From positions 300,480-364,479 of the forward strand of contig JAJDCD010000008.1 in NCBI GenBank assembly GCA_029261035.1: a stretch of DNA of 64,000 nucleotides, given 5' to 3'. The stretch's first letter is position 1. Each line of letters begins with the position of its first letter. Shown here in pieces: positions 25,849 through 64,000 of this stretch. The position numbers and the translations under genes were made by a program. The DNA is from Candidatus Omnitrophota bacterium (lineage in GTDB: Bacteria > Omnitrophota > Omnitrophia > Omnitrophales > JACROU01). The notes under the pieces were generated by a model. It did not search any database and was not told the origin of the DNA. It saw nothing but the letters and a program-made list of their open reading frames with translations.

Positions 25849-25853
25849 CAATT

Positions 25854-46546: not shown

Positions 46547-46590
46547 TCCATTTATTCATTTAGGTATCATATTATATACATAAATGGTAT

Positions 46591-46887: not shown

Positions 46888-46920
46888 TGTTTGTCAATGA
46901 GACTGAAAGCTGATATTTTT

Positions 46921-47505: not shown

Positions 47506-47530
47506 TTGTAAGCACTCTCCTTTTTTTGAT

Positions 47531-48079
47531 TTAAAATATTGAAACAATGGAACCGAGGGTTCCATACTTATGCTTCGCCATGATCTTTCTGAATTCCGGA
47601 TCATTCACAAATTGCTTAAGCGCATCCTTCACAAGAAAGTCTGCGATGCGTTCCTTAGCTTCTGACTCCATAAAAGAATCAATCAACACCTCGTAGCCTC
47701 CTGACTTTTTCCCTTCATATTTAAGGACACCTTTTTCATTGATTACTCTGAGTTCGAGAACGAGTGCGGCTTTAACTGGCCGACTCAAGATATCCGGCGA
47801 TGAAAGCTCAAGTCCTCTCACTCTCAAGATGACCTTTTCACTATCCTTGCTTGAAACAAGTTCGATAATACCTTGCTGATCTTCATTCCTTTCAACCTCA
47901 AGACCCGTTTTAAGACCGATGTAATGAACCAAATAACGTGTAACCATATCTCGAAGACTATTATCAGTTGGGATTATCTCCTGACTCTCTTTTACTTTTT
48001 CGGTCATAACTTGGGGCACCGTGGCTGCACAGCCAATAACCAATGAGAGGAGTAATATCGCAAGACTTGAGATCCTCAT
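47531..48079 (-). CDS. Lipoprotein, hypothetical (182 aa)
   Basis: Lipobox LVIGCAAT. Confidence 0.55.
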   Translation of the reverse strand: MRISSLAILLLSLVIGCAATVPQVMTEKVKESQEIIPTDNSLRDMVTRYLVHYIGLKTGLEVERNEDQQGIIELVSSKDSEKVILRVRGLELSSPDILSRPVKAALVLELRVINEKGVLKYEGKKSGGYEVLIDSFMESEAKERIADFLVKDALKQFVNDPEFRKIMAKHKYGTLGSIVSIF

Positions 48080-49200: not shown

Positions 49201-49778
49201 GAAAGAGTGCCTCCCTTCACAACAGAAACTTCTTTCAAAAACAACACACCTTTTTTGGGCCTTGCGTGGATATCATCAATCACAATCTCAAATGTCTTTA
49301 CCTCTGACCAATCCCGGATTCTTCTAAATTTCTGAAGAGGGACTTCAAATTCCTTCCATTCGCTTCTTACTCCTGACAATAAATAGGGCGCTTTACGATT
49401 ATCTTTATCCGTAAATTGAAGTGCTATATTGCCAGTGAAGGGCGGATCGCTTTCAGCTCTCATCCAAAGATGAAGCGATTCATATTCTGATAAATCATGG
49501 CCCTCGATTTTAAGCCAGAAACCTCCCATTGCAGGAAGCGAAGAATCCACATCAAAGAGCACGTCTACTTCTGCGGCGTTCGCGCTAATCTCATGTCTTA
49601 CGCTCTGCGCAGCATCGAGAATGTTATGCTCCCAGGTTCCCATCATGATCTCAGCATCAAGCCGAGTAAGATCGAGTAGATTCAGTTTTTCGTTCTCAGC
49701 ATTCGCTTGCCCTTTAAATGACACGATACATATAAAAAGGAGCAATGCCCTAGAAAGAGTTCTTAAGCACATTCGCAT
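49197..49778 (-). CDS. Secreted CBM-like β-sandwich domain protein (third paralog)
   Basis: ATG 49776-49778 with signal peptide MRMCLRTLSRALLLFICIVSFKGQANA. Motifs DVDSSLP, GGFWLKI, SEWKEF, FLKEVSVV. Confidence 0.7.
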   Translation of the reverse strand: MRMCLRTLSRALLLFICIVSFKGQANAENEKLNLLDLTRLDAEIMMGTWEHNILDAAQSVRHEISANAAEVDVLFDVDSSLPAMGGFWLKIEGHDLSEYESLHLWMRAESDPPFTGNIALQFTDKDNRKAPYLLSGVRSEWKEFEVPLQKFRRIRDWSEVKTFEIVIDDIHARPKKGVLFLKEVSVVKGGTLS

Positions 49779-50508
49779 GCCTCCTTGCCGAATCGAGAGA
49801 TTCCTTGCTTCCGATATCAAACCACGCCCCGTCAAAGTCCACCGCATAAAGTGACTCTTTCTTACTGAGCCATGCAACAAAATCTCCGATCCTGTCAGGA
49901 TTTAGTTTCTCAAGCTCAAGGTATTCATAAATCCTCATCCGGTACTTGCTTGGAAAATAATAAACACCAATGCACACATCCGTAGACTTCGGGTTCTCCG
50001 GCTTTTCTTCAAAGTCCGTAATGAGGTTATGATCATCTCGCATCACCACGCCACATAGCGATGCAACCGAAGGTTCTCCTACATCATAAATACCGACAAA
50101 GGCATTCTCAGGATCTCCGAGACACGGCAAGAGAAAATGGCTCAATGGAAAATCAAAGTAGTTATCTCCACAAAAAACAAAGAAATCATCACTCCCGCAG
50201 TATCCAGAGCGGAGTGCTAGATCGAGATCCCTCACGGCACCCAGTCTTTTCTCCGGCACAAACGCGTTATTTTCAACGATGTGAATGGGCTTCTGATAAC
50301 ATGAGTTCCTGCACCATTTATAGAAGTCCAGATAAAACTTCCCGCTAGTCACGATAATGATTTCATCCACGGCACTGACCACCTCTAGCTGTTCGATTAG
50401 AAAATCCAGAATCGTTTTATTTCCTAACTTAAGCAGTGCCTTTGGCGTATCCTCTGTAATCGGATAAAGTCTTGTTCCGAACCCTGCGGCGAGAATAATA
50501 GCTTTCAT
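49750..50508 (-). CDS. Sugar-1-phosphate nucleotidyltransferase (NTP_transferase fold)
   Basis: MKAIILAAGFGTRLYPIT…PKAL signature. Confidence 0.8.
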   Translation of the reverse strand: MKAIILAAGFGTRLYPITEDTPKALLKLGNKTILDFLIEQLEVVSAVDEIIIVTSGKFYLDFYKWCRNSCYQKPIHIVENNAFVPEKRLGAVRDLDLALRSGYCGSDDFFVFCGDNYFDFPLSHFLLPCLGDPENAFVGIYDVGEPSVASLCGVVMRDDHNLITDFEEKPENPKSTDVCIGVYYFPSKYRMRIYEYLELEKLNPDRIGDFVAWLSKKESLYAVDFDGAWFDIGSKESLDSARRHANVLKNSF

Positions 50509-50526
50509 ATAAATAAACTCCTTTTA

Positions 50527-51456
50527 TTAAGAATTAATTTTGATAGAAGCGTGCATCCCGTACCTAAAGTTCCCCGGGATTCCATCAAGTTTCACTTCAC
50601 AAGAAACCACATGCCGAATCTTAAAGACCTTCTCAACCTCTTGCGATGTGCGCGGCGCTAACCTCACAACCCGCCCTTTGTAAGTTTTTGAAGAAAACGC
50701 ATGAAACCTTGCTTTTACTTTGCTACCCACTTTAATCTTTTGCACCTCTTCTTCCGGAATTAAGACTTCAACAAAGTAGGTATCTGGGTCTGCGATCTCA
50801 AGCACAAACTCACCTTTTTGGATGGGACTCCCTATCGTGTCTGATGGGTCAGTCAAAAGAACTCCATCAAAAGGCGCTTTAAGCTCAAGAGACTCCATTC
50901 CTTCTTTGATATAATCCAATTCCCTTTTCGCAGACTGAATTTTCTTCTCAAGAATCACAAATTCCTGAGTGGCTTGAATAAAATCAAATTCTTTCTTGCC
51001 CAATTCACTTTTTCCGGTCACACCATTCTCATAAAGCATCTTGGTTCGTTCACGAACCTTGTCCAAATACTTTAATTTTTCATTCACTATCACTTTTTCA
51101 TCTTCTAATCTCCCAAGCTCTAATTCTGCTTGTGTGTGTTGCTTTAAAAGTTCGGGGTTTTCAAATCTCGCAATTAGCTCCCCTTTCGTTAAAACCGATC
51201 CCTTCTCACGCAGCAATTCTTTAAGCACTCCGGAGCTCGTAAGTCCAAGCCTCGCAAATTTATCTGCTTGGAGCACTCCATCGCCTTTAAAGTCTGCTCT
51301 TGGCCAGATAAGGAAAGAAACAACGGCTATCACTAAAATTAAAATCATCTTTCCTTTTTTGCCTTTAGCTTTCTTCTTTACCTCATGATTCTCTTCAAAA
51401 AGCTGCGGTTCATCTTTCGGAGAATCGTCCGTTGGTTCTTTATTAATTTCTGTCAT
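50527..51456 (-). CDS. HlyD-type membrane fusion protein (periplasmic adaptor)
   Basis: N-terminal TM, biotinyl/lipoyl-like hairpin (…KGELIARF), coiled coil, LKAPFDGVL β-barrel motif. Confidence 0.8.
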   Translation of the reverse strand: MTEINKEPTDDSPKDEPQLFEENHEVKKKAKGKKGKMILILVIAVVSFLIWPRADFKGDGVLQADKFARLGLTSSGVLKELLREKGSVLTKGELIARFENPELLKQHTQAELELGRLEDEKVIVNEKLKYLDKVRERTKMLYENGVTGKSELGKKEFDFIQATQEFVILEKKIQSAKRELDYIKEGMESLELKAPFDGVLLTDPSDTIGSPIQKGEFVLEIADPDTYFVEVLIPEEEVQKIKVGSKVKARFHAFSSKTYKGRVVRLAPRTSQEVEKVFKIRHVVSCEVKLDGIPGNFRYGMHASIKINS

Positions 51457-51480
51457 TTTTATCTCTTCTCCTTTTATTTA

Positions 51481-53097
51481 TTAAATCCAGTTTCTCAGTT
51501 CTTGCGGTACTGTCTTTGACGTTAGATAGACTGCCGGAATCGATAAGATCAGGCTCGTCAAAATCGGTGTTGCTTGCCAAATGAAGTAATGCACATTCGT
51601 CAAAATGAAAATTAACCCAAATACGCCAAAGGCTGTTCCTCCCCACATATACTTTGCTGTACTTGTTAAAGTGATCTTCGCAAAGGGATCTTTCAGCATT
51701 GGTTTCCAATTCAACTTCCTTAAAGGAATAGTCAAAATATCAATAGGCGCATAAACAAAATTATTAAGCGTAATAAGCGTTGATAGAAATAGTTCGTACA
51801 AATATTCTCTAAAGTCTCGCCAAGTTTTTAAAATTGTTACTTTGTGAAAAAACACGACACTAATACTAAAAATCAGAACCCATTTAAGAGTACTGTTCGT
51901 ATAAAGTCCCATCCAAATCGAATCTATTTCAAAATGAATAAGCTCACCGGTAAATTCGGAGTGGCTTAAAATCCCAAGGATTACCCAATAAAAGAAAACA
52001 AGATCAGCGAGGTAAAGGTAGATCCCGTAGAAGGCGAGAAAGCGGGTTGCTGGCGTAATACCGCGCTCAAGAACAAGCGGCCATCCTTGAAGCGTACCCT
52101 GTGCCCAACGCTTTGTTCTGGCACGCGATTCAAGATAGTTTGCCGGAGCTTCATCATAGGCGTGAACATCTGGGCAAAAGACTACCCTGTAGCCTAGTTG
52201 TCTGAGCCTGACAGTATCCCAATTATCATGAGAGAGAAGACCTTTGGGGAGACGCACCTTTCGAAGCGCCTCTGTCCTCGCAAGATGATGATGGCCAAAT
52301 GAAACTGTCTCTCCAAAAATTGCTTGAATTGCGATAAAGCTAAATTTTTGTGCAAAGTAGGCTCCTATTCTTTCAAAGCGAGAGTACCAAGTCGTTGCAT
52401 GAGCAATTCGGATAATTGCTTGAAAAATAGCGACATCCTGATTTTTAGGATGCTCAGCTTTCCTCAGTAGCTTTAAGAGCGTCCCTTTAGGAACCATTCC
52501 ATCCGCGTCACAAACGTAAATATACTTATACTCAGGATGTGAGTGGACAAACTCCCCGACATTTCCTTGTTTTCGTTCAACAGGGTTTTCACGTCTTCTA
52601 TAAAACACTCTGCCCGGATGCAATCGTTCTAGCTTTGCAACAAGATTTTTTTCATATGAAATAAAATCCTCAGAAGAATCAGAGAGTAGCCAAAGATCTG
52701 TATCAGGTAATTTATTTCCTGAAAAAGAATAATGAATCCTTTCAGAAAGGCCATGCCCTTCATTACGAATAGGATAGACGAGTGCCATTTTAGGAATTCG
52801 TTTTACAAAAGTTTCTTTTAAAATGGGTCTTCTAATAAATAGGTGAGCAATACTTAGAAGAAAAAGATAAGCTACATTGAAAAATAGAAATTCAAACCCT
52901 ACAATCCAAAGAACTCCAAAAATCCAGGTTTCACTTGTGAACACGATCCTTGATGCCACAAGCCCCATCGTAAAAAGAGAACCGATAAGAGCCGTCCCAA
53001 GAAAGAGCCGCGTTCTTTTAACGGGTGTAAGCCAATCGTTTAAATAAAATCTATTCTTCATAGTCGGTTTCCTCATAAAGAGAATATTCTTCGTCAA
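51481..53097 (-). CDS. opgH: OpgH(MdoH)-like membrane GT2 glucosyltransferase (β-1,2-glucan backbone synthase family). Start may be an internal Met
   Basis: PIRNEG, LLSDSS, YRRRENPVERKQGN, VCDADG, LLSHD, RTKRWAQGTL align with OpgH motifs PIYNE / FVLSD / YRRR..N..RKAGN / VLDADS / ILSHD / RDRRWCHGNL. Multiple TM helices on both sides. Confidence 0.65.
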   Translation of the reverse strand: MTKNILFMRKPTMKNRFYLNDWLTPVKRTRLFLGTALIGSLFTMGLVASRIVFTSETWIFGVLWIVGFEFLFFNVAYLFLLSIAHLFIRRPILKETFVKRIPKMALVYPIRNEGHGLSERIHYSFSGNKLPDTDLWLLSDSSEDFISYEKNLVAKLERLHPGRVFYRRRENPVERKQGNVGEFVHSHPEYKYIYVCDADGMVPKGTLLKLLRKAEHPKNQDVAIFQAIIRIAHATTWYSRFERIGAYFAQKFSFIAIQAIFGETVSFGHHHLARTEALRKVRLPKGLLSHDNWDTVRLRQLGYRVVFCPDVHAYDEAPANYLESRARTKRWAQGTLQGWPLVLERGITPATRFLAFYGIYLYLADLVFFYWVILGILSHSEFTGELIHFEIDSIWMGLYTNSTLKWVLIFSISVVFFHKVTILKTWRDFREYLYELFLSTLITLNNFVYAPIDILTIPLRKLNWKPMLKDPFAKITLTSTAKYMWGGTAFGVFGLIFILTNVHYFIWQATPILTSLILSIPAVYLTSKTVPQELRNWI

Positions 53098-54406
53098 AAA
53101 GCGACCTAAAAGCGGTCTTTCTATCTAAACGCGCCATTAAAATCCTATAATCTGTAACAGCCATAAGTTGATTGATCTTCGCTTCCTCTAAAGCGATAAA
53201 TGAATCAATTAGTTCACCAGCGCCACGCTCACCAGCAATAAGACGGGTCTTTTCGTTCTTATAAATCTCCCGTCTTTCACGCCGAAGCGTTTTTGCAAGA
53301 CGAACCTTTTCACGCAGCGCCCTGCCATCATGAAATAGCTTCCTTATCTCTTTTTCATGTTCACGAACCTTTATTTCACCTTCCCACTTTGTTTCTTCCA
53401 TTTCATGTTCCTTAGCTTGGATTTTGGAACCGAGTCTTCCAAAGTCCCAAATATTCCATTTCACTTCCGCGCCAACCATTGCCCTATTTGTGTCTACAAA
53501 AACATCATCGTTACGATTCCATCTCGCCGTAAGATTGATATGAGGAAATCGATCTGCCTGAAGCTCTCGCCTTTCAAACTTCTTCTCTTTCACCTTATAA
53601 TCCCAAAGCCGGTAGATAGGATCGTTCTTACGCGCAGCTTCAAGGTAATATTCCGAGTTACTCTGAAGCTCTGCGTAGTCAGACAAGGGCTCAAGGCTAA
53701 GAGATTCTCCTTGAGCAATTCCAACTGTCTCAATCAACACATCTAAAAGATAATCATAAGATTCTTTGTGTTTCACAAGCGCATGCTTAGATCTTTGAAG
53801 TAAGGTTTCAACTCTAAACAGCTCATAAAGCGGAAGAATCTCTTTATCTATTAGCCGTTTCATACGTTCGTGCGCCGTTTGAAGCTCACGAACCTGTCCT
53901 TGAGCAATACGGGTAGATTCTTTTTCAAGTAGCACTTGTGCATAAAGAATCCGAATTCCAAGTTCTACATCAAGCTTGGCCGCTTCCAGCTCAGTTTCTT
54001 CTCCCCCAACCCGAGCCTTTTGCTTTCTTTTCCCCGCAATGATTTTCCCGCCTTTAAAAAGAGGCTGCTCAATACCCGCATCAAGGTAATTCACCGTTTT
54101 CTTCTCACCCGTGGACACAGCCCCAAAAAACTCGGCAGAAAGCTTTGGAAGGAACTCTGAAAGACTTCCTTTATAAAGAGCCTTTTCTTTACGAAGTCTT
54201 GCAAATGCCCGTTTCATCTCTGCCTGATTCTTAAGAGCTCTCGTAATAGCATCATTAAGAGTAATGAGAGATCCATATCCCATTAAACCAAGCTCCTCTG
54301 CGGCCTTCGCTTTCACCGGAGTCATTAAAAATATTAAGGCAAAGACAGATACGCCTAATATTCGTATGCCGGACTTTTTCTTTGTATGTGCAAGACTTGC
54401 TCTCAT
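53051..54406 (-). CDS. TolC-like outer-membrane efflux protein (OMF)
   Basis: Signal peptide (ATG 54404-54406). Two-repeat coiled-coil/β layout typical of the OEP family. Confidence 0.75.
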   Translation of the reverse strand: MRASLAHTKKKSGIRILGVSVFALIFLMTPVKAKAAEELGLMGYGSLITLNDAITRALKNQAEMKRAFARLRKEKALYKGSLSEFLPKLSAEFFGAVSTGEKKTVNYLDAGIEQPLFKGGKIIAGKRKQKARVGGEETELEAAKLDVELGIRILYAQVLLEKESTRIAQGQVRELQTAHERMKRLIDKEILPLYELFRVETLLQRSKHALVKHKESYDYLLDVLIETVGIAQGESLSLEPLSDYAELQSNSEYYLEAARKNDPIYRLWDYKVKEKKFERRELQADRFPHINLTARWNRNDDVFVDTNRAMVGAEVKWNIWDFGRLGSKIQAKEHEMEETKWEGEIKVREHEKEIRKLFHDGRALREKVRLAKTLRRERREIYKNEKTRLIAGERGAGELIDSFIALEEAKINQLMAVTDYRILMARLDRKTAFRSLFDEEYSLYEETDYEE

Positions 54407-54461
54407 AAAAAAATCTTCTCCTTCCAAATAGACTGTTTTTCTAGAAACTTTCCTTCGAACC

Positions 54462-54734
54462 TTATCCCGCGAGTTTTTCTCCGAGTTTCTTAAACCCTTT
54501 CAAAAACTCTTCTGGTTTCTCCGGATAGGGAATTCCTCTTTTTTGCGGGAGCATAATGTCTTCCTTACGCCCCTTCTCAAAAAACCGCATATCACCGACC
54601 GTTTGACCATCAATTTCAACTACGGAAAATCGGAACTCTTCACCATCTCCTGTTGGAATCACATGAACGATCTCTTTTTGCACGATCTCTCTTTGCTTAA
54701 ACACCCGCTTCGTTCTTTGTTCTGTTTTTGCCAT
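54462..54734 (-). CDS. Small hypothetical protein (90 aa)
   Basis: ORF between trbI-like and OMF genes. No signal peptide. Confidence 0.35.
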   Translation of the reverse strand: MAKTEQRTKRVFKQREIVQKEIVHVIPTGDGEEFRFSVVEIDGQTVGDMRFFEKGRKEDIMLPQKRGIPYPEKPEEFLKGFKKLGEKLAG

Positions 54735-54758
54735 TGTGATATTTCTCCTTTTTTAAAT

Positions 54759-55721
54759 TTAAATTGCTTCAAGCAAAATCACTTGAATGGGAGTGTAGGA
54801 CTCCACGGTAATGCTTTTCTCCACGCGTGCTTCTCTCAAATTCTGGCGTGCTTCATCATGAAGATTCTGTGAAACATTCAGCCTGAGCTGATCTTCCAAG
54901 CTATAGGGGTCACGCCCTCGTCCCCCAAGAAAAAGAGAACCTACTGAAAGCACAGACTCACCAATAGCTTTTAATACTTTCCTGTCCGTGTGCCGATCCA
55001 CATCACCTTGTATTCCTGCGGCCCCGTCCTCAGAAAGAGCCAGAGCTCGCACACGAACCTCACGACCGTCCGGTAAGATTAAGAGATCAAAGCTGACATT
55101 AATCCGGTCTAAGGACTTCACAACATCTGCTTCTCCAAGAAATCGTGCCCCCTTCGGAATCACCACTTCATCTCCGTAACTGAAATCCTTGGGAAGAATT
55201 GCCTGAACCGGTGCTCGGACGTTAAAAGAAAATATACGGTCTGAAAGAAGCGCAGGAACCTTTGTTCCTGACGGCAACCCGAAACTGAACTCCTCTTTTG
55301 TCTCTCTGAGACGCATATTTTTCTCTTCCTCTGGTTTTGAAACAAAAACTGCAATCTTTGTGTCATATTTTCTTTTTTTGCGTTCTGCTCGGATCTCATC
55401 GGATCTTCTCTTAACCTTTTTGGTAGACCGTGAAGATTTTTTAATCGCCTTTTCCATCGATTCTGCCGTCATTACAATCCTGCCTTCTTCAACCGGAGAA
55501 ATTTTCATTTCTCCTTTTGTTTTTTTAGAACGCGGCGAAAAAACAGAGAACGAGAGAAACACAACGATTAATATGAAAACTACAAATAAAACAGGCCGCT
55601 TTTTAATTGCCTCTTTAAGGCTTTCTGCTTTTTCTCTTGGACCGTCTGGTGAATCAAAAAATTGTTTCTCTGGCGGTCCCTGTTTTTTCTTCTGAGCTTT
55701 CTTAAAAAAATCTTTAAACAT
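54759..55721 (-). CDS. trbI: T4SS VirB10/TrbI-like protein
   Basis: N-terminal cytoplasmic region, TM, linker. C-terminal …VIPKGARFLGEA…LSEDGAAGIQGDVDRHTDRK matches the TrbI/VirB10 barrel domain. Confidence 0.75.
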   Translation of the reverse strand: MFKDFFKKAQKKKQGPPEKQFFDSPDGPREKAESLKEAIKKRPVLFVVFILIVVFLSFSVFSPRSKKTKGEMKISPVEEGRIVMTAESMEKAIKKSSRSTKKVKRRSDEIRAERKKRKYDTKIAVFVSKPEEEKNMRLRETKEEFSFGLPSGTKVPALLSDRIFSFNVRAPVQAILPKDFSYGDEVVIPKGARFLGEADVVKSLDRINVSFDLLILPDGREVRVRALALSEDGAAGIQGDVDRHTDRKVLKAIGESVLSVGSLFLGGRGRDPYSLEDQLRLNVSQNLHDEARQNLREARVEKSITVESYTPIQVILLEAI

Positions 55722-55748
55722 AGTCGGCAGTCCACTCCTTAAAAGTTA

Positions 55749-56771
55749 TTATTCAAACCACTTAAATCCCTTAATCTCAATATCTCGCTTTTTGCCCATC
55801 TCACTATCCTCAAGAATTCGAATAAATGGTTTTTGCTTCTTTCCAAGTACCCGGTAATCAAAAACAAGCACACCATACTCATAGGCATCCGGAGAGATTG
55901 TTTCAGGAAGCTCAAGTTCTGACGGAAGCTCAATAACACCCGTCTCTTTATTTCTCAAAAACTTCCTTTCATGACTCACAGCCCCAACTAAAACCTTCAG
56001 TACCTTGAATGGCGTTCTTGAGTAGTTAAGAACCGAAAATCGCAGATAGGCTTTATCTGCAACTTGAGAAAGGGACAAAAGATTTACCTGCACATCTTCC
56101 TCTGCCTCAGATTTACGAAGCTCTATCGTCTGAACGCCTGAGGCCACCTTCTCAAGTAATTTTTCCTCAGAAAGCTTTTCTGCCTGTTCATTAAGCTCTT
56201 CAGATCTCTCCTGATAAACCTCTTCAAGCTCGTCGGTCTTTTCTTTTACTCGCTCCTCGAAGGCATTCTTAACAAGAGCTTCATCTTCTTTGGGCAATCT
56301 AAAATCCAGTACAAAATCAGCAGTATCCGGCGGACCAACTGACACATCAAAAGCAAGACGATTAGATGCCGTTACAATCACAAGGTTTGAGCGAGCGTCC
56401 GTTTCATCTGTAATAGGCTTTACAAGAACCTGCCGCTCATAGACTTCAACCTTAAAAAGTTCCTGATCTCCAACAAAAACTTTTTGAGCGGGTTCAGGCA
56501 AATCAATCGTTGACACATAACCAAGCGCTGTTTGAAGACGAAAAGCAACCGTAGAACGCATCGTGACCTTGTAAATATTTTGTGTAGTACGTTTTAGTTT
56601 GTTAAATGTTTGGCGAATCTTGAGCGGGTCTGATTTCTTTTCAGTCTCTGAGAATACCCCTCGCTCAAGAGTCATAGGTTCGTTTCCATAGGCTATAAAA
56701 ATTGGTCCTAAGGCTAAAACCGCACATATGAGAACGCTTGTAAGAATTAGTAAACGTGATCTTATTTTCAT
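55749..56771 (-). CDS. trbG: T4SS VirB9/TrbG-like protein
   Basis: Signal peptide. N-terminal YKVTM…YVSTIDLPEPAQKVFVGDQELFKV…VLVKP…SNLVIVTASNRLAFDV fits the VirB9 N-domain pattern. Confidence 0.75.
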   Translation of the reverse strand: MKIRSRLLILTSVLICAVLALGPIFIAYGNEPMTLERGVFSETEKKSDPLKIRQTFNKLKRTTQNIYKVTMRSTVAFRLQTALGYVSTIDLPEPAQKVFVGDQELFKVEVYERQVLVKPITDETDARSNLVIVTASNRLAFDVSVGPPDTADFVLDFRLPKEDEALVKNAFEERVKEKTDELEEVYQERSEELNEQAEKLSEEKLLEKVASGVQTIELRKSEAEEDVQVNLLSLSQVADKAYLRFSVLNYSRTPFKVLKVLVGAVSHERKFLRNKETGVIELPSELELPETISPDAYEYGVLVFDYRVLGKKQKPFIRILEDSEMGKKRDIEIKGFKWFE

Positions 56772-57424
56772 TTTTCTTCCTCCAATTTATTGAGTATGAT
56801 TTCTTTATAATTCTCTACAAGAAGACCCGATGAGGAAGATCGCGTACGCCTTACCTTCTTTAAAACGAGTTCTGCTTTGAACAAACTTGACTCACGATAA
56901 TCAGGATCGTTATAGTTAAAGAGGGTTCTCACTCCGACAAGTGAGACAAAAGCAAAATCGTCTGTCTCACGCTCCACTTTTTCCTCTTTAAATTCAATCC
57001 GGGCATAGAGGCCTGTTCCCTGAAACTTCACAAGAAAACCAGAATCTATGAGATCTCGATTCGCAATCTTCCGGTATCTGGATGTCATCCAGTTCCAGGC
57101 ATACTTTGTCTCTGTAAGCGCATAAGAATTAAGCCCTCTGAATTTCTCTACGAAAAATGTTGAGAATTCAAGAATCTCCACTTCGCTCGGATCATTGTGG
57201 GACTTTATATTTTCAATCACTTCTGCTTTACCTACCTCATTAACCCGAATCACCAGAGGTGGACGTGACATCACCATTAAAAGTGCAGCAATCAAAATAA
57301 AATTGAGTCCTATTGACATAAGGTTTGTGCTTTTCAAAAATTCGTTAAAGACTTCGTAATCCGCAAATACCTCGTAATATTTCCTTTTCATGTTCTTTAG
57401 TTTTTCCTCAAATCTTGTTTTCAT
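56768..57424 (-). CDS. trbF: T4SS VirB8/TrbF-like protein
   Basis: Bitopic: cytoplasmic N-terminus, one TM, approximately 150-aa periplasmic domain. Gene-order position. Confidence 0.6.
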   Translation of the reverse strand: MKTRFEEKLKNMKRKYYEVFADYEVFNEFLKSTNLMSIGLNFILIAALLMVMSRPPLVIRVNEVGKAEVIENIKSHNDPSEVEILEFSTFFVEKFRGLNSYALTETKYAWNWMTSRYRKIANRDLIDSGFLVKFQGTGLYARIEFKEEKVERETDDFAFVSLVGVRTLFNYNDPDYRESSLFKAELVLKKVRRTRSSSSGLLVENYKEIILNKLEEEK

Positions 57425-58311
57425 TTATAAGTTCCTCCTCCTGAAGTGGCGGATGATCCGGCCCGGCCCGCAGCTCCGGCAGCACCACCCGCAAAACGAT
57501 TTCCAGAGGTCGCAGGACGAATTATGTAGCGTCCCGTAACAGCAGCGACCGTCCCTAACACAATTGAACCTAAACCACCTATGCTCGGCCCACCGACAAA
57601 TTGGTTAGTCATGATCGGAACTAGAATGAAAAGCACGATAAAAACAATATTTGCAGTTAGAACTACCAAGAAGTTGGTGTCTTCGGCTGCATAAATTGCC
57701 GTAAGATTCATGACCGATATGACTTTCATGAGAATGGAAAGAAGAACCTTCCAAGCAGAGATTGCAACAAGACTACGTATCCACGCATCGAGCCCGCGAG
57801 AGCTGACTTTGTAAACCGCCATTCCTGCTACGATGGGTCCAATTAAATAGAGTGCTGAGAGAAGCGCAAATCTCAGAATAAAGTTTGCACCAAGCACCGC
57901 ACCGGCGATTGCGTATGTGACATAGTTCATGACCGTTAGGGAAATTCGCTGATCAAATTTCCAAAAATATTTCCAGTCAAATGGAGCATCAAAGAAAGCT
58001 TTTGCAGTCTCGCGGAATTCTTCATGCGGAAGAATTGAATCCGCCAACAGATCCATACCGTAAACAATCATGATAAAAAAGCGGTCGTACATAATGAGAA
58101 GGCCTGCAATAAGCAATACCCTCAGAAAAAGTCCTGTGTAATCAGACTTCCCTTTCATTGCTTGTACGTTTTCGTGAAGTATTGCTACGATGAAAAAGAA
58201 TGAGAATAAAACAAATGAAAGTCTCATAAGCAATGCGAAAGGTTGCTCAAAGAGGTTTGGAATTTGAAGAACATTAGTAAATAAGAATCCGTGATTAAAT
58301 CCTGAAAACAT
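57421..58311 (-). CDS. trbL: T4SS VirB6/TrbL-like polytopic membrane protein
   Basis: 5-6 TM helices. Gly/Ala-rich C-terminal tail typical of TrbL. Confidence 0.6.
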   Translation of the reverse strand: MFSGFNHGFLFTNVLQIPNLFEQPFALLMRLSFVLFSFFFIVAILHENVQAMKGKSDYTGLFLRVLLIAGLLIMYDRFFIMIVYGMDLLADSILPHEEFRETAKAFFDAPFDWKYFWKFDQRISLTVMNYVTYAIAGAVLGANFILRFALLSALYLIGPIVAGMAVYKVSSRGLDAWIRSLVAISAWKVLLSILMKVISVMNLTAIYAAEDTNFLVVLTANIVFIVLFILVPIMTNQFVGGPSIGGLGSIVLGTVAAVTGRYIIRPATSGNRFAGGAAGAAGRAGSSATSGGGTYK

Positions 58312-59082
58312 TTAGAGAGCACCTCCCCCATAAAGCGTACTAAGACCTTCCGCAAAGTCAGAGGAATCCTCTAAAAACTTAACCTTTTCTCGTTCTATGC
58401 GTTTTTCTTCTCGCGTGACCTGTTCTATTTGAGTCGCTTGAAGTTCCAACATTTTCGCGAGAACTTCTTGATTCTGCTGTTCAAGAACCATAAGACGAGA
58501 GACACCCTGAACTTGTAACCTAGCCGCACCTTTTGGGCTTGCGTTCTTTGATTGACTCTGAATTAAGTCCGCAGCATCCCGTGTTTTTTGTCCTGACTCA
58601 CGGATCTGCCCTGCCAAATGAAAGGCATCTACAACTTGAGATTCTTCAAACATGATGTAGGAACGGGCCTCAGTGTCCGGTATTGCGCCTGTCACTGACT
58701 CAAGCGCATTCCGGATGTCCTGAGGAGTACCCCCGCTACCTAACACTTCAATATTGGGTGTGATAAAACCAGCATCAAAAAAGAAATCTTTAAGGCTTCC
58801 TCCTTGATCCATGAGGCCTCTAATAGAATCACCAATTGTGGAATCAAATATTTCGTCTAGACCCGAATGAAAGCGAAATGTTTCTAGGGTTTGGGCTTTG
58901 AGTTCGCTAAGACGATCTACAGCAAGCCCAATTTCTTTGACCCACTTCGCTTGCATAAGAGTGTTTCTAAGCACATTAATCGCGGTGTTAATGGGGTCAT
59001 TAAACGTATAAGCTTTTGAAGCGGGCGTCATTAAAACCATACATAAAGGAATGAGGATAAGAGCTTTCTTCAATTGCTTCAT
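58312..59082 (-). CDS. T4SS VirB5/TrbJ-like secreted α-helical protein
   Basis: Signal peptide ending SKAYT, helical repeats. Position between VirB4-like and VirB6-like genes. Confidence 0.5.
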   Translation of the reverse strand: MKQLKKALILIPLCMVLMTPASKAYTFNDPINTAINVLRNTLMQAKWVKEIGLAVDRLSELKAQTLETFRFHSGLDEIFDSTIGDSIRGLMDQGGSLKDFFFDAGFITPNIEVLGSGGTPQDIRNALESVTGAIPDTEARSYIMFEESQVVDAFHLAGQIRESGQKTRDAADLIQSQSKNASPKGAARLQVQGVSRLMVLEQQNQEVLAKMLELQATQIEQVTREEKRIEREKVKFLEDSSDFAEGLSTLYGGGAL

Positions 59083-61598
59083 GCAGCTACCTCACTTTTA
59101 TTCACGCCGTTTGGATATTTTTTTGCCAATCTTTCAAGCGCAGCCAAATTAGAGTCGCTGGGATATTCACTTCGGAGCCTTTTCTCCTCAGCTAGGTCCG
59201 TTGGATCTGTTGTAGCAATCCAGTATTCAAGAGGACTAGGCTCAAGCTTTGCAAGTACTGATCTTTGATCAAAAAGAATAAATATTTCCGAATAGCGTCC
59301 GGGCTTAACTTCCAATTCCCGTACTGCACGAACCTGATTTTCATTAAATCCAAAATCACCGAGCTCTTCATGCCCTTTCTTAAGGCGCAGGATATACTTC
59401 ACATGCGCGTTATTAGCCATAACACCAGCAATTTCAGAACTGAGAAAGTCTTCTGGGTTTTGACTGATGGCAAGAACCGCTCCATTCATTTTTCGCATTG
59501 TTCTAAAGAACAGTTCTATAAGATCTACGCCTTGCGTTTTTTTGAGAAGATGCCAGCATTCATCAAGTACAAGAATCTTCTTGCGATTTACATTTTCAAA
59601 CTTACGTCTTAAAGCAAACGGAATAATGAGCAGTAAGATTTCTTGAAGTTCTTCGTATTGACTGATCTTCCTAAGATCAAAGATGGCAAAACGTGAATCA
59701 AAATCAAATCGGGCGGGACGATTTAGAATCTTTGAGTACTCACCTTCACAAAAAAGGGTGAGCTCTTTCGCGAACTTATAAGCAAGCTGTCTGTCTTCGT
59801 CATCACCGGCACCATAACTTTGGAGGTATTTTTGAATGTCACCAAGAATAGGCGCTTCTTTTGGGGAAAGATTTTTATAAACATACCGAATAACACGTTC
59901 AAGAATGACTTTCTCGCTAGCAGCCCAAGCCCGTTCGGGATTGATCATCTTCTGGAGGAGTTCCTTCAGAAACTGAAGAAAAGTCGCATCGGCCTCCCCT
60001 TCAGTTGGGAATAGGACTTCTTTCGAAGGAAAGGGATTTAAAGCAAACTCTTCACTACACTCTACCTCAAGATAAGACCCCCCTAAGATGCCAGCAAGTT
60101 TCTTATAGGAACCTCCGAGATCAAGCACGATCACATCATGCTCAGACGCTTCACTTAAAAAGTGCATGAGAAGATGGTTCGTAAAAAAGGATTTTCCTGA
60201 TCCCGTACTACCGAGCATGAGAGCATGTTTTGAAGCGAGCGAAGAATCAAAGAGATCCAATTTTAACGGTTCATTACGATAAGTTTTTAGAAGCAGCCCT
60301 ATTTCCTGAGTCCCCGGCCAACTAGCTTGTACTGGAAGAAGATTTACCGCAGTTTCAGAACTCACAAGAAATGCGATTGGATTCTCTCCGCCTTGGAGTG
60401 GAAGAAGCGAAAGAAATAGCCGGTCATGATTCATATGATCAAGAATGGCTTGAGCACCATCCCCTAAATGTCGGAACCCACGCAAAACCTCACTCGCTTG
60501 ACGAGCTGCGCTTTCTTTCTTTTTACTACGCGTCATTACAATCATCGAAGCATAGAAAAGCTTATCTGAACTCTCCGCTATTTCCGTCAAAAGAGCATCT
60601 GTATCATCTTCCTTTGCAAGCGCATCATGGTTCTTTGTCCTGGAATAATAACTTTCTGCTCGCGCAAGATTTCCGGTGCGCTTAAGTCCTGATTTTTCTT
60701 TATCCTGATCCGGAACTTCTAGTGTTAAAGAAAGGTAATAATCATCCCCAAGCCCACTCTCAAAACTTTTCATACTTTTCAGACTCGTTGTCTCAGGCAT
60801 CTGAGAAAGATTGATCACGTTATGGAAATACTCACTTAGATAAAATGCGTCATAACCAGCGAAGGGATTACTTAAAAGAAGTTTCGAGCGAACGCTTGAG
60901 GGATCAAGCTGATCATTACGACTCGAAAACGCATATTTCTCAAATTCTGAATTTTTTGAATCCAAACTCGGATTCAAAAGCTCATGGCAATACCGCAGGA
61001 CATCTTCATCATTAAGTTCTTTAATCCCTAACCCTAAGTCTTTTAAGGACTCTTTAATCTCCGTTGAAATTGAATGAAGCCTGTCTCTGAGTCTTTCAAA
61101 TTCTTGCTTCTCTAGGCGGACTGCTTTTTTATTGAAAGCAATCGCCATATCTGGAACAAGAGAGTTTCTTGGTTTTTTACTCGATGGATGAATAACTACA
61201 AATAAATAGACTTCTCTTTTAAGAAAAGGTTGTTTCATATGAGTCTCGATCCTTGCTTCTGAAAATCGCTTACTTAACACGTGATCGCTCTGGATGGACT
61301 CACGGTATTGCTCAAGCAAGACTTCATCGCCCTTTTTCTGACGAACAACAAAATGAAGAGTAGTTTTTTCAGGAAGCGAATTAAGGAATCGCCGCATACG
61401 ATGTTCAAAGTCAGAGATTTCAGATTCTTTCTCAAGCAAAAGATCCCTACCTTCCACAAGGAACCCTTTCCCCAAAGATCCTGATACTCCAACGATGGTT
61501 GAATCATCAACATCGTAGAGATCGATCTCTTTTAAAAAGGAAGGTTTATTTTCCCGTTGAATCAAATCTCTTGTTTTAGTAATGAAATTTTTTTTCAT
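59079..61598 (-). CDS. trbE: T4SS ATPase VirB4/TrbE-like (839 aa)
   Basis: Walker A LMLGSTGSGKSF, Walker B ILVLDECWHLL (DEAW-type). Size typical of VirB4. Confidence 0.8.
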   Translation of the reverse strand: MKKNFITKTRDLIQRENKPSFLKEIDLYDVDDSTIVGVSGSLGKGFLVEGRDLLLEKESEISDFEHRMRRFLNSLPEKTTLHFVVRQKKGDEVLLEQYRESIQSDHVLSKRFSEARIETHMKQPFLKREVYLFVVIHPSSKKPRNSLVPDMAIAFNKKAVRLEKQEFERLRDRLHSISTEIKESLKDLGLGIKELNDEDVLRYCHELLNPSLDSKNSEFEKYAFSSRNDQLDPSSVRSKLLLSNPFAGYDAFYLSEYFHNVINLSQMPETTSLKSMKSFESGLGDDYYLSLTLEVPDQDKEKSGLKRTGNLARAESYYSRTKNHDALAKEDDTDALLTEIAESSDKLFYASMIVMTRSKKKESAARQASEVLRGFRHLGDGAQAILDHMNHDRLFLSLLPLQGGENPIAFLVSSETAVNLLPVQASWPGTQEIGLLLKTYRNEPLKLDLFDSSLASKHALMLGSTGSGKSFFTNHLLMHFLSEASEHDVIVLDLGGSYKKLAGILGGSYLEVECSEEFALNPFPSKEVLFPTEGEADATFLQFLKELLQKMINPERAWAASEKVILERVIRYVYKNLSPKEAPILGDIQKYLQSYGAGDDEDRQLAYKFAKELTLFCEGEYSKILNRPARFDFDSRFAIFDLRKISQYEELQEILLLIIPFALRRKFENVNRKKILVLDECWHLLKKTQGVDLIELFFRTMRKMNGAVLAISQNPEDFLSSEIAGVMANNAHVKYILRLKKGHEELGDFGFNENQVRAVRELEVKPGRYSEIFILFDQRSVLAKLEPSPLEYWIATTDPTDLAEEKRLRSEYPSDSNLAALERLAKKYPNGVNKSEVAA

Positions 61599-61873
61599 TC
61601 AAACACTTCCTCTTTTCTTTCTCGTTTAATCAGATATCGCTTTGGCCTCAAAAGGAACTTCACCAAAGAACTAGTCCAATGAGGCGGCTTTCCTCTTTTA
61701 TAGGCTCGTAAAAATAAATAGACTCCTATCATGACAACTAGGTTCACCAAAAGATCTTTTGAAAATGTGAACACCAACCAAAACACAAAAAACAAAAAGA
61801 AGAGGTCAAAGAACTCCAAGCCAAAAAATTTATTTTTATGTTGAATCTTGTTATGTCCTTTAACTGTCTTCAT
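61595..61873 (-). CDS. trbD: T4SS VirB3/TrbD-like small membrane protein
   Basis: 92 aa with a hydrophobic core. Directly upstream of, and overlapping, the virB4-like gene. Confidence 0.55.
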   Translation of the reverse strand: MKTVKGHNKIQHKNKFFGLEFFDLFFLFFVFWLVFTFSKDLLVNLVVMIGVYLFLRAYKRGKPPHWTSSLVKFLLRPKRYLIKRERKEEVFE

Positions 61874-61884
61874 ATTCTGTCCTT

Positions 61885-62202
61885 TTAAAAATTTGTAAGT
61901 CTCTCCAAAATATCAAGAAGCGCTCTACTCAAAAGCATGATCGCTCCCCCGAGTGCCACTAGCCCAAATTTTTGAGCTGTCCTACTGTCTCCAAAAATAA
62001 CCGCCGCGCCGGCCAAACAGATCCCAATAATAAAAAGCGGGCCTGCCACGGTATTAATCAGGAAGTCTCCGATCCCCGAAAGAAAATCTATGAGATCTGC
62101 TTCTGAGGTTGCCTCAGCAAATGCAAACCTTGCATTAAACAAAAGCATTCCGGTAAACATGAGTGCCTTATGAATCATTTTTTGTTTTTCTCGGTCTCTC
62201 AC
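61885..62202 (-). CDS. trbC: T4SS pilin VirB2/TrbC-like
   Basis: 105 aa: long signal peptide followed by two hydrophobic helices (…PLFIIGICLAGAAVIFG…GLVALGGAIMLL). Confidence 0.6.
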   Translation of the reverse strand: MRDREKQKMIHKALMFTGMLLFNARFAFAEATSEADLIDFLSGIGDFLINTVAGPLFIIGICLAGAAVIFGDSRTAQKFGLVALGGAIMLLSRALLDILERLTNF

Positions 62203-62231
62203 TTTTCTTTTACCTCCATTTATTCAAAAAA

Positions 62232-62317
62232 GATGAGGGGAAGCATGATCGAATTCCCTTAGTGCGGCTATTAAGCCTTGTATACCTTACTTGAGTGGAA
62301 TGTCATGCTCCCCTCAT
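62232..62317. promoter_or_regulatory. 15/16-bp inverted repeat (atgaggggaagcatga … tcatgctcccctcat) separated by 54 bp, in the leader region of the T4SS operon
   Basis: Seen directly. Located between the regulator stop (62369) and the trbC-like start (62202). Confidence 0.5.
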
Positions 62318-62368
62318 ATAGGGGCACGAAACACGATTTTTTGAATGAACTTTTAAGGGTGTTACTCT

Positions 62369-63001
62369 CTATACAAATTTCTTAACCCCTTCCCTAATAA
62401 TTTGATGAACTCGAACTATCGAAACTCCAAGCTGCTCGGAAATTTGTTTGAGCGTTCGACCTTGCTTCCTCAGCTTAAGCACTTCTCTTTGTCTTTCTGT
62501 TAAAGGCCGTGATCCCTTTTTCTTTTTCCGGTATGAACGCTGTGAAGATTTCCGGTGGGTTTTGATCAGTTTCGCTTGTATTCGATCTCGCAAATGACAA
62601 AAATGAGATTGAGATATACCTAACCTCTTTTGAACAGTCTCATCCGAATACTTCATCTCATAGAAAAATGTGTAGCATGCTTGCTCCTGAGGACTCAGAT
62701 TTGCTCTGAGAGCCAGAAGCCCCAGCTTTGTTCTTTGTGCATGTTCTTTCTCTTCAAGAACCTCCTCTTCTTCAATTCTCACAAGCTCATCGTAGGGACT
62801 CGGGGAACTTGCCAGCTTTCGTTTCACCTCAAGCTCAAAGATTGAAAGAGGGACTCCTGAATTTGAATTGTTCTCGATACGTTGAAAGTCAACACTCTTC
62901 ACCGTACGTCCTGATTCAAACCATATAAGAGATTCTCTCTCATCCCTCTGGCTCTCCTTGATAAGTCTCTCAAGCGTTGCTCTTCTTTTTTGTTCTTTCA
63001 T
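62369..63001 (-). CDS. Transcriptional regulator with two HTH segments (σ70 region-4 / LuxR-like C-terminal HTH)
   Basis: …TERQREVLKLRKQGRTLKQISEQLGVSIVRVHQIIREG… Start most likely ATG 62999-63001 with AGGAGA SD, rather than the upstream GTG at the ORF's 5' end. Confidence 0.6.
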   Translation of the reverse strand: MKEQKRRATLERLIKESQRDERESLIWFESGRTVKSVDFQRIENNSNSGVPLSIFELEVKRKLASSPSPYDELVRIEEEEVLEEKEHAQRTKLGLLALRANLSPQEQACYTFFYEMKYSDETVQKRLGISQSHFCHLRDRIQAKLIKTHRKSSQRSYRKKKKGSRPLTERQREVLKLRKQGRTLKQISEQLGVSIVRVHQIIREGVKKFV

Positions 63002-63043
63002 TTTGGTTCTCCTATTCCGCCGAACAGGGAGAACCCAACGCAC

Positions 63044-63078
63044 ACAAAAAAAGCGGCAATCCGAAAGGACTGCCGCTT
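63044..63078 (-). terminator. Rho-independent terminator-like hairpin (GNRA loop) plus T-tract, upstream of the regulator gene
   Basis: Minus strand: gcggcagtcc-tttc-ggattgccgc followed by ttttttt. Confidence 0.5.
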
Positions 63079-63654
63079 TTAGGCTTAAAACAAAAAAATT
63101 AGCTTTTTAAAAAAAACAACTCATCTGGGCACAAAAAGGGCCTTGGTTACTTAGAAATACTTATCAACATATAAAGACTCCAAGATTAAAAACAGGAACT
63201 TGATTCTAGGGAAATGGAAAGGAAAGAATACTCCCGTGTGAGATCAGAACAAACACACTACGCCTGCAAGCGGAGATCCTCCGCATTGCCGCGTCCTTGC
63301 GTTGCTTAAAGGTACGCCCCACACGGCTTTGGGTCAAATCGAAATCCGAAGCACCTCATGAACTGCATGCTCTTGATTCCAATTCGCTCCGGATGAGTAC
63401 AAAACTTTGTTTTGCTCATCCAAACCCGTCAAAGGTTTTGGATTTTTTAACGGGCTATAACAATGACGGCCCACCTGCTTCCAGGCGAGTTTGCCGCCGC
63501 AAAGATAAAGAACTTGAGTGCTCTTTATCCAAATTTCGAGTTGTCAAAATAACCGCAAATATATTTTTTTGCAAGTATTAATATTCGAATATCCTGATGC
63601 AGACCAATAACTTATAGCATTTTCTAGCCACTCCTAATTTAGATGATCTGATTT

Positions 63655-63714
63655 TGGGCAAAAAAAAAGACCTTTTTTAGAGAGGAAGGGAGTCTTAATT
63701 ACAGACTCCCTTCC
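63655..63714 (-). terminator. Terminator-like perfect 12-bp hairpin after the partial ORF
   Basis: ggaagggagtct-taattaca-agactcccttcc, then an A/T tract on the transcribed strand. Confidence 0.4.
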
Positions 63715-63720
63715 CTACTT

Positions 63721-64000
63721 CTAACGTCTCCTGAGAAACCTCTGCACGTCGCGAACAATTCCATTTAGAACAGACCAAGTTGATTTTACTTGTGTCTGCA
63801 TAGTTGGCTTTGGACGTTCATACGGGTAGGTCACTGGACTTCTTTCAAAAGACTCTGGCAACTTCTTCTCTTGTAGTTGTGCAGGCTCTTCTACGCTAGT
63901 TTCAATCTGATCATTTTTGAAAATACCAGCTATTAACCGGCATCCACCACCAACGCCAAAGACGAGAAGACCAATAAAACCAAGTCGAAGCAGCCATCGA
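63721..64000 (-). CDS. C-terminal fragment of a membrane protein (gene continues beyond the window)
   Basis: Open minus-strand frame from the window edge to TAG at 63721-63723. TM segment LGFIGLLVFGVGGG. Confidence 0.4.
   Translation of the reverse strand, partial: RWLLRLGFIGLLVFGVGGGCRLIAGIFKNDQIETSVEEPAQLQEKKLPESFERSPVTYPYERPKPTMQTQVKSTWSVLNGIVRDVQRFLRRR

Follow-up and report, generated by a model that had tools for sequence, protein, structure and literature searches.

The stretch of DNA analysed here, called the window below (64,000 nucleotides of contig JAJDCD010000008.1 from a Candidatus Omnitrophota bacterium), contains a type IV secretion system (T4SS) gene set, an envelope export module, a serine recombinase gene and a tRNA-His gene, which are discussed as parts of a putative integrative and conjugative element (ICE). 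The T4SS lies in the interval 63001..54759 of the minus strand, which consists of nine consecutive open reading frames (ORFs): a regulator and then eight tightly packed T4SS genes of 105, 92, 839, 256, 296, 218, 340 and 320 codons. The coordinates and family matches of the features are summarized in Table 1. Related loci are given by number (e.g. L046) where they need to be told apart.

Genes of the transfer operon

An earlier note on this DNA had described the eight genes as a T4SS set in the order VirB2-3-4-(5)-6-8-9-10, preceded by a regulator with two helix-turn-helix (HTH) motifs. All nine ORFs were recovered on the minus strand where it had placed them, and the regulator contains two stretches of the sigma-70 region-4 type. 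Regulator orthologues occupy the same position in all relatives. The listed regulator ORF begins at GTG 63043; the 210-aa product that starts at ATG 63001 is an exact database entry, which makes this ATG the more likely start. Genes overlap by 4 nt at four junctions of the T4SS run, a pattern as in translationally coupled operons. The minus strand continues past VirB10 with ten more ORFs and has no strong terminator until 46912..46872. One promoter-to-terminator unit (63001..46921) comprises the regulator, the eight mating-pore genes, a PC4-like protein, a TolC-like channel, an OpgH-like family 2 glycosyltransferase (GT2), a HlyD-like adaptor, a nucleotidyltransferase, YhcG and secreted proteins. 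All 19 ORFs in the element's part of the window are intact and tightly coupled.

The VirB assignments were examined with hidden Markov models (HMMs). Support is strong for VirB2, VirB4 and VirB10, moderate for VirB9 and, via orthologues, for VirB8, and weak for VirB3 and VirB6; the call of a VirB5-like protein in the earlier note found no HMM match. The pilin has a signal peptide and two hydrophobic helices. The VirB3-like ORF overlaps the VirB4 start by 4 nt and has orthologues of 37-82% identity in relatives. VirB4 scores 295 bits with the TraC-F-type model (cut-off 567) and 172 bits with VirB4_CagE, and among PDB sequences it matches VirB4 4AG5 (2.7e-15) and TrwK (5.9e-9). Its Walker A and Walker B motifs, pointed out earlier, are indeed present (GSTGSGKS at 463-470; D679/E680) and invariant in 16 homologues. 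The L118 orthologue of the VirB6-like protein matches PF04610 TrbL, and orthologues of the VirB9-like protein carry CagX matches. The VirB8-like protein of the window has no HMM match itself. Profile searches against PDB sequences with the VirB8-like, 256-aa and VirB3-like families, and with the MOB_C-like family described below, returned nothing significant.

The 256-aa protein in the VirB5/TrbJ position has no Pfam, NCBIfam or PDB match, whether used as a single sequence or as a profile. Its family comprises only 21 clusters among 1.84 billion representatives, and a search of all representatives gave no bridge to VirB5/TrbJ. A single-sequence AlphaFold model is all-helical and poor, with a predicted local distance difference test score (pLDDT) of 53. 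One family member has a weak match to DUF4141, the CTnDOT TraI family.

The system had been labelled Trb/P-type in the earlier note, and the model scores contradict this label. TrbE models of NCBIfam give 58, 42 and 39 bits on the VirB4 of the window against cut-offs of 1020, 810 and 1322, the IncP TrbI model gives 18 bits on the VirB10-like protein against a cut-off of 386, and the VirB4 equivalogs NF010473 and NF010427 reach E-values of 6.6e-5 and 2.7e-4. VirB4 scores best with models of F-type TraC and Bacteroidetes-type TraG, in each case under the cut-off. The VirB6-like protein leans to Bacteroidetes TraJ and the VirB3-like protein to TraL, and no gene of the operon matches the F-specific families TraU, TraN, TraF, TraH and TraW. 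A VirB11/TrbB ATPase is absent from the window and from all twelve relatives, including those that span relaxase to integrase. Since VirB11 is missing in every relative, full-length ones included, its absence is a trait of the family and not, as had been considered, a gap of this window. VirB11 is seldom present outside the mating-pair formation (MPF) class MPF_T (Guglielmini et al., PMC4027160). By the thresholds used the family fits no described class and, judged from its sequences, is an undescribed variant of conjugative T4SS.

The 90-aa ORF after VirB10 was considered as a VirB7 lipoprotein and rejected, as it has no lipobox and is PC4-like; its L117 orthologue also matches PC4, and the protein probably binds single-stranded DNA. 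It is followed by the genes for the TolC-family outer-membrane factor (OEP), the GT2 and the periplasmic adaptor. The GT2 retains the invariant residues D133, D190xD192, HDNWD and RxxRW, the mark of a processive glycan synthase. In all relatives with VirB4 identities down to 41% these three genes come after VirB10 and the PC4-like gene, and OEP persists at 34%. Identities of the GT2 (79, 72, 62, 65, 61, 63, 57 and 48%) track those of VirB4 (79, 62, 62, 62, 56, 55, 52 and 41%), so the trio has long belonged to the module and is not a recent cargo. Tripartite glucan exporters made of GT2, HlyD and TolC proteins are known, e.g. BgsA/BgsB/TolC and XcsABC (PMC13438883). No literature report of such an exporter inside a conjugation operon was found in a search that was not aimed at such a module. 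The most likely function of the trio is the synthesis and export of a polymer of the beta-glucan type.

Further along the operon, two secreted 227-aa paralogues flank YhcG, and both match one L047 ORF. One of them shows weak legume-lectin similarity besides a sub-threshold match to CBM11, a family that binds mixed-linkage beta-glucans, and at other loci homologues of the 227-aa proteins also occur beyond tRNA-His, in the chromosomal flank. On the chromosomal part of the window, 24013-25908 and 31998-34148 encode proteins with PF10091 ('putative glucoamylase'), one of them also with DUF3131. PF10091 corresponds to the GH144 beta-1,2-glucanases, which would match the beta-1,2-glucan chemistry of an OpgH-like synthase on the island.

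Ahead of the regulator lies a conserved non-coding leader whose structured region spans ~240-310 nt across relatives. An alignment of three close leader sequences contains 106 predicted pairs, 4 of them compensatory. In 10 sequences, helix 1 of the 3' module shows 100% pairing, with UG, UA or CG at one position, and the module hardly varies among relatives in which the neighbouring proteins are just 30-50% identical. A covariance model gives one match for each T4SS locus and none in the rest of 874 kb, and there is no match in Rfam. With only 10 sequences the covariation evidence is modest. A conserved 60-nt block in the intergenic region at 63.3 kb was tried as an origin of transfer (oriT) and rejected in favour of an RNA element, since the helices tolerate G-U pairs, show compensatory changes and lie between a conserved promoter and terminator. 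Domain 5 of a group II intron was also dropped as an explanation for the leader hairpin, there being no catalytic-triad geometry, intron ORF or Rfam match. The leader is a candidate for a new cis-regulatory RNA.

Element boundary and the region beyond the window edge

The stop codon of the recombinase lies inside the tRNA-His gene, and the recombinase is transcribed separately from the transfer operon. The G+C fraction is ~0.36 left of tRNA-His and ~0.42 right of it. The integrase, the tRNA-His boundary and the step in G+C together place the T4SS genes on a compositionally distinct island. A metagenome scan with the recombinase returned 58 loci, and at least 17 of the 58 have tRNA-His(GTG) immediately 3' on the opposite strand, often overlapping the stop codon; a motif after tRNA-His is shared at the recombinase/tRNA-His junctions. 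Two of the loci (L058 and L061) run from VirB6 or VirB9 through OEP, GT2, the membrane fusion protein (adaptor), nucleotidyltransferase and YhcG to the recombinase and tRNA-His, which links the element's right half, contained in the window, to the left half known from other relatives.

The recombinase ORF ends in the tRNA-His 3' end in the window (44714-44735), in L058, in L062 and in others. The sequence just after tRNA-His, TTTGTTACCCTCnGACGAACC, is conserved and encodes the C-terminal tail of the recombinase, so the attachment (att) core is probably contained in the 3' end of the integrase gene itself. Three loci (L063, L064 and L099) have a second copy of the junction motif CCCCAnTTGTTCC shortly past the first, 70-80 bp after tRNA-His, and the two recombinase genes of L053 and L056 lie ~15 kb apart on one contig. 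The second motif copies and paired recombinases suggest tandem accretion or element remnants at tRNA-His.

As a rule, ICEs keep a conserved transfer module and swap the integration modules around it. In L117 the same transfer module ends in two HTH_17 genes and a tyrosine integrase, and in L008 (Elusimicrobia) a related T4SS is followed by a serine recombinase and then tRNA-Met, the module exchange typical of ICEs.

Metagenome bins of Candidatus Omnitrophota are nearly the only source of VirB4 homologues at 53-81% identity, which is the basis of the host assignment; viral contigs searched with VirB4 gave distant VirB4s only. The chromosomal flanks around the element differ between relatives. 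Upstream of the regulator the relatives have, in order, a small gene, a 239-289-aa protein, a VirD4 coupling protein, a two-repeat PC4-like protein, RadC and variable genes (ThiF/JAB, or amidoligase/GATase, or DUF2201/AAA_5), then DUF6573 and a ~120-aa membrane protein. From the ~120-aa protein on they continue with ~570-810 bp of non-coding DNA, the regulator, the VirB2-B10 set, PC4-like, OEP, GT2, adaptor, nucleotidyltransferase and YhcG. In 12 syntenic relatives a relaxase candidate and VirD4 lie 3-8 kb upstream of the regulator; L001, L004, L046, L047 and L117 have this pair with a Replic_Relax-like gene. In the accessory region of one relative ICE (L120/L121, 2280-5193) there are three adjacent tyrosine recombinase genes, a 'recombinase in trio'. 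In L122 (JGI 3300025858, Ga0209099_1002314), positions 1-2383 are 100% identical to the 3' conserved segment of clinical class-1 integrons (qacEdelta1-sul1-GNAT), which lies next to IS6100 in plasmids; the segment is directly joined to accessory genes, leader and T4SS of the ICE family, either by a real insertion or as an assembly chimera.

The partial ORF that the earlier note saw at the window edge is real: ~120-aa homologues are found at the same position in relatives. In L046 and L047 the homologue lies just upstream of the regulator, and the cut ORF (63999..63724) corresponds to the last gene of the element's upstream accessory block. With the cut ORF identified as the ~120-aa membrane protein, the coupling protein is expected ~3-8 kb past the window edge. 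P0124 is a full-length VirD4/TraD-type coupling protein of 611 aa with P-loop and TraG-D_C domains, 75% identical to that of the closest relative, L046. It is a singleton on a 465,966-bp NCBI contig, and all window proteins that were looked up are singletons on a contig of identical size. The coupling protein would therefore be encoded on the window's contig, outside the window.

The relaxase candidate of the relatives is the 239-289-aa protein, whose gene overlaps the start of the coupling-protein gene. P0262 passes the gathering score of PF13814 Replic_Relax (26.5 vs 25.3 bits), and the more distant L117 orthologue has a strong precomputed match. PF13814 appears in the precomputed annotation of 11 of 34 members of the relaxase family, and NCBI names one a 'replication-relaxation family protein'. 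PF13814 is the MOB_C relaxase family (PMC5357655). In TraX of pAD1, the prototype of this family, the active site is of the restriction-endonuclease type (PMC12857230). Streptococcal mobilisable elements carry MOB_C, VirD4 and a serine integrase (PMC5357655), the same trio as in the T4SS family described here. An AlphaFold model of the candidate, built from 29 sequences (pLDDT 89.5), has an N-terminal winged HTH (wHTH) and a C-terminal alpha/beta nuclease-like domain. The residues of a PD...ExE...K motif are invariant (P159-D160, E173, E175 and K180), and the nearest solved folds of the C-terminal domain are PD-(D/E)xK nucleases, with Foldseek E-values of only 2e-3 to 7e-2. The relaxase for the window's genome is probably past the window edge too, the synteny of the relatives supplying the candidate.

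Upstream of the relaxase/coupling-protein operon, an imperfect palindrome of ~100 bp is common to L047 (~2010-2130) and L004 (~1975-2105), in both of which VirB4 is only 62-79% identical to its window counterpart; in L117 a different inverted repeat (~3000-3200) occupies its position. This palindrome, which lies outside the window, is the best oriT candidate.

Two observations concern the chromosomal part of the window. A transfer-messenger RNA (27380-27787, minus strand) encodes an unusually long tag of 27 residues, ADKNISLGDRVELHNVNFAPVALPLAA. The flank at 715-5460 and 17993-22717 holds two ORFs of ~1,580 aa, one without any Pfam match and the other with a C-terminal WD40 propeller.

Table 1. 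Features of the element in the window, from the cut edge to the tRNA-His boundary
Feature	Position	Strand	Matches and remarks
Membrane protein of ~120 aa, 3' part, cut by the window edge	63724..63999	-	ends ...QVKSTWSVLNGIVRDVQRFLRRR; matches 120-aa ORF in L046 (51%) and L047 (42%)
Conserved non-coding leader region	63002..63720	-	before regulator ATG
Leader promoter	63574..63546	-	TTGCAA-17-TATTTT; conserved in 10 sequences
Structured RNA, ~308 nt	63538..63231	-	minimum free energy -124.3 kcal/mol, z = -6.8
Leader 3' module, highly conserved	63335..63263	-	GCCGUGUG...ACGCGGCAAYGCGGAGGAU
Leader intrinsic terminator	63080..63049	-	conserved; strong minus-strand terminator just upstream of regulator
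Hairpin sequestering the ribosome-binding site	63035..63005	-	compensatory arm changes; just before regulator ATG
Regulator, two sigma-70 region-4-type HTH motifs	62369..63001	-	Sigma70_r4 4.3e-13; TIGR02937, 2 stretches
VirB2/TrbC-type pilin	61885..62202	-	PF04956 38.4 bits, above gathering score 27.9
VirB3-like small membrane protein	61595..61873	-	weak: TIGR03750 2.8e-4, TraL 2.3e-3; position, size
VirB4-family ATPase, 839 aa	59079..61598	-	P-loop_TraG 2e-36; TraC-F-type 8.5e-88; VirB4_CagE 1.5e-50
Secreted helical protein, 256 aa, VirB5/TrbJ position	58312..59082	-	signal peptide, gene position
VirB6-like polytopic membrane protein	57421..58311	-	weak: TrbL 0.0056; Bacteroidetes TraJ 1.3e-5
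VirB8-like bitopic protein	56768..57424	-	orthologues only: 5 of 8 match PF04335, best 4e-6
VirB9-like protein	55749..56771	-	CagX 8.4e-8, 32.7 bits, just below gathering score 34.2; TIGR02781 8.6e-10
VirB10/TrbI-like protein	54759..55721	-	PF03743 61.6 bits, above gathering score 35; NF038091 2.4e-11
PC4-like protein, 90 aa	54462..54734	-	40% identical (2e-13) to both repeats of L124 orthologue with PF02229 PC4
TolC-family outer-membrane factor (OEP)	53051..54427	-	PF02321 3e-41; TIGR01844 1.8e-19
Polytopic processive GT2, OpgH/MdoH-like glucan synthase	51481..53097	-	NF003958 MdoH 5.3e-47, 160 bits (cut-off 419); Glyco_trans_2_3 4e-16
HlyD/RND-type periplasmic adaptor (membrane fusion protein)	50527..51456	-	HlyD_3 2e-17; TIGR01730 2.8e-21
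Sugar-1-phosphate nucleotidyltransferase	49750..50508	-	PF00483 2.5e-32; glucose-1-P thymidylyl-/uridylyltransferase models ~1e-22
Secreted protein, 227 aa	49197..49880	-	paralogue of 46921..47604
YhcG PD-(D/E)xK nuclease	48076..49200	-	YhcG_C 2e-55
Lipoprotein, 182 aa	47531..48079	-	lipobox LVIGC
Secreted protein, 227 aa, paralogue	46921..47604	-	CBM_11 2.2e-5, below gathering score
Intrinsic terminator ending the transfer operon	46872..46912	-	18-bp stem; only strong one between 63049 and recombinase gene
Large serine recombinase, integrase of the element	44714..46546	-	Resolvase 1e-21, Recombinase 6e-11, Zn_ribbon_recom 8e-14; XisF-/Ccr-like
tRNA-His(GTG), integration target, right-hand island boundary	44660..44735	+	ARAGORN, Rfam

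Interpretation and rival explanations

The best reading of positions 44,736-64,000, in which we have good confidence, is that they form the right-hand ~19 kb of an ICE. The whole ICE would probably measure ~27-30 kb and be inserted at the tRNA-His 3' end in a probable Omnitrophota chromosome. The earlier note had remarked that no VirB11, coupling protein or relaxase lies between the VirB10-like gene and the recombinase, which the gene contents confirm, and had offered two explanations: that the missing genes lie beyond 64 kb, or that the T4SS is reduced and non-conjugative. The former is favoured, by P0124 for the coupling protein and by the upstream pair in relatives for the relaxase, and the latter is the less likely of the two; the missing parts would be mostly a window-edge effect. 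Of the parts that it had wanted looked for upstream, the VirD4 homologue is probably P0124, and a relaxase candidate and an oriT-like palindrome come from the relatives only.

Going by the synteny of the relatives, the region beyond 64 kb would hold the oriT-like palindrome, the small gene, the MOB_C-type relaxase (wHTH and restriction-endonuclease fold), VirD4, the two-repeat PC4-like protein, RadC and variable accessory genes. In the proposed mechanism the serine recombinase would excise the element, the relaxase would nick oriT, and the coupling protein would hand the single strand to a VirB4-powered pore that works without VirB11, with PC4-like proteins coating the single-stranded DNA. The element would then reintegrate at the tRNA-His of the recipient. 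The leader RNA with its terminator and hairpin at the ribosome-binding site probably gates the regulator and hence the whole operon. The polymer may help very small cells stick together for mating; this is a guess, the least supported step and one that we rate as rather doubtful.

Several points weigh against the ICE reading. No transfer has been observed, and only the right end of the element is in the window, with the left end and second att site unseen; a search of the left flanks of relatives for repeats of the junction motif or the tRNA-His 3' end gave chance 11-13-mers only. The position of P0124 next to the T4SS is taken from the relatives and not read from the contig. The MOB_C assignment rests on marginal HMM scores and on Foldseek E-values above 1e-3. 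No VirB1 or VirB7 equivalent was recognised, and the function suggested for the glucan module is conjectural. None of the 34 matches of the relaxase-family search came from the 465,966-bp contig; it likewise failed to return the query's own entry and the 90%-identical L047 protein, which makes this null result uninformative. The main uncertainty that remains concerns the left half of the window's copy, including the relaxase.

The same empty search, together with the unseen left part, could speak for a decaying or non-autonomous ICE that has kept its pore and coupling protein, has lost its relaxase or oriT and no longer transfers itself. We judge this unlikely, as none of the 19 window ORFs is disrupted and all are tightly coupled, the coupling protein has its full length and both its P-loop and TraG-D_C domains, the search was of poor recall, and the relaxase gene overlaps the coupling-protein gene in every relative. 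Many Omnitrophota are epibionts or predators, and coupling proteins can recruit protein substrates too. A contact weapon or host-interaction T4SS, which delivers proteins or attaches through a glucan-coated pilus with DNA transfer secondary or absent, would agree with these traits, with the widespread and syntenic occurrence of the system in Omnitrophota metagenomes, and with an unusual conserved envelope/export module accompanied by secreted proteins that possibly bind carbohydrate. However, a relaxase-family gene, integrases of two classes, tRNA targets, PC4-like proteins and RadC accompany the system, which occurs in varied chromosomal contexts with a G+C unlike the host flank and has no recognised effector-like genes; we rate such a function as still less likely than decay.

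Least likely, and in our view highly improbable, is a system for DNA release or uptake, such as the gonococcal genetic island or ComB, instead of mating. Probable single-stranded-DNA-binding proteins inside the operon and the lack of a recognisable mating-pair stabilisation protein would fit it, but a VirB2-type pilin, a VirB9/VirB10 outer-membrane core and an integrase-bounded element are the pattern of an ICE. ComB-type systems moreover have no coupling protein and relaxase, whereas here a coupling protein is found on the window's contig and relaxase candidates in the relatives.

Beyond the ICE reading itself, it can be proposed tentatively, at odds that we put below even, that the family is an undescribed conjugation class of diderm bacteria centred on Omnitrophota, in which the TolC/HlyD/OpgH-like parts are integral and co-evolving, serve a mating-aggregation polymer or an outer-membrane conduit, and stand in an operon gated by a structured leader RNA of ~300 nt and of a kind not known before. 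No description of this type of conjugation machinery was found for Omnitrophota or other little-studied candidate phyla, and the mobile elements reported in recent surveys of Omnitrophota mostly lack classical ICE machinery. Gene flow in these ultra-small bacteria could be traced with the family, a concrete case of an ICE that is widespread, looks complete and has a defined target in tRNA-His. Should the glucan-export trio truly take part in transfer, it would represent a new way of forming mating pairs or of crossing the outer membrane. The conserved leader would be a new class of regulatory RNA tied to horizontal transfer. If the integron junction in L122 is real, the family would be linked to the spread of resistance genes.

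Comparison with known systems

The T4SS shares with MPF_T systems (Agrobacterium VirB, IncP Trb and R388 Trw) the gene order VirB2-B3-B4-(B5 position)-B6-B8-B9-B10, a VirB2-type pilin, the CagX domain of VirB9, the TrbI domain of VirB10 and a coupling protein of the VirD4 family. It differs from them in that the relatives have no VirB11/TrbB, that no VirB1, VirB5 or VirB7 is recognisable, and that TrbE, TrbI and VirB4 equivalog models score far under their cut-offs. The relaxase candidate is MOB_C-like and not MOB_P or MOB_Q, and an OEP-GT2-MFP module is embedded in the operon. Likeness to MPF_F (F TraC) and MPF_B (CTnDOT TraG/TraJ) is seen in the best VirB4 models (TraC-F-type at 295 bits, and P-loop_TraG), in a weakly TraJ-like VirB6 and weakly TraL-like VirB3, and in the shared absence of VirB11. 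However, the scores are all under family cut-offs, and neither the F-specific TraU, N, F, H and W nor the CTnDOT-specific TraK, M and N were recognised. The pilin is of the VirB2/TrbC type, whereas MPF_F has no VirB2 homologue (PMC4027160).

Like MOB_C systems (TraX of pAD1, MobC of CloDF13) and streptococcal class-8 integrative and mobilisable elements, the family has an ORF of PF13814 type with wHTH and putative PD-(D/E)xK parts immediately upstream of VirD4 and overlapping it; the streptococcal elements share the serine integrase as well. In contrast to these systems, the sequence scores are marginal, the hosts are diderm candidate-phylum bacteria, the element has its own full T4SS, and the relaxase gene is seen in relatives only. 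The recombinase has the Resolvase, Recombinase and Zn-ribbon domains of large-serine-recombinase islands (XisF elements, SCCmec Ccr, Tn5397 TndX). Its closest NCBIfam models are XisF and Ccr, yet far under the equivalog cut-offs, and its target is the tRNA-His 3' end with the recombinase stop codon inside the tRNA gene.

With the beta-glucan exporters BgsA/BgsB/TolC of Sinorhizobium and XcsABC of Thermosynechococcus, the export module has in common a processive polytopic GT2 with D, DxD and RxxRW, an adaptor of the HlyD type, a channel of the TolC family and a sugar nucleotidyltransferase beside them. Among known synthases OpgH/MdoH, and not BcsA or BgsA, comes closest to the GT2, in which no PilZ or cyclic di-GMP domain was detected. 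A further difference is that all three genes of the trio lie inside a conjugation operon on a mobile element.

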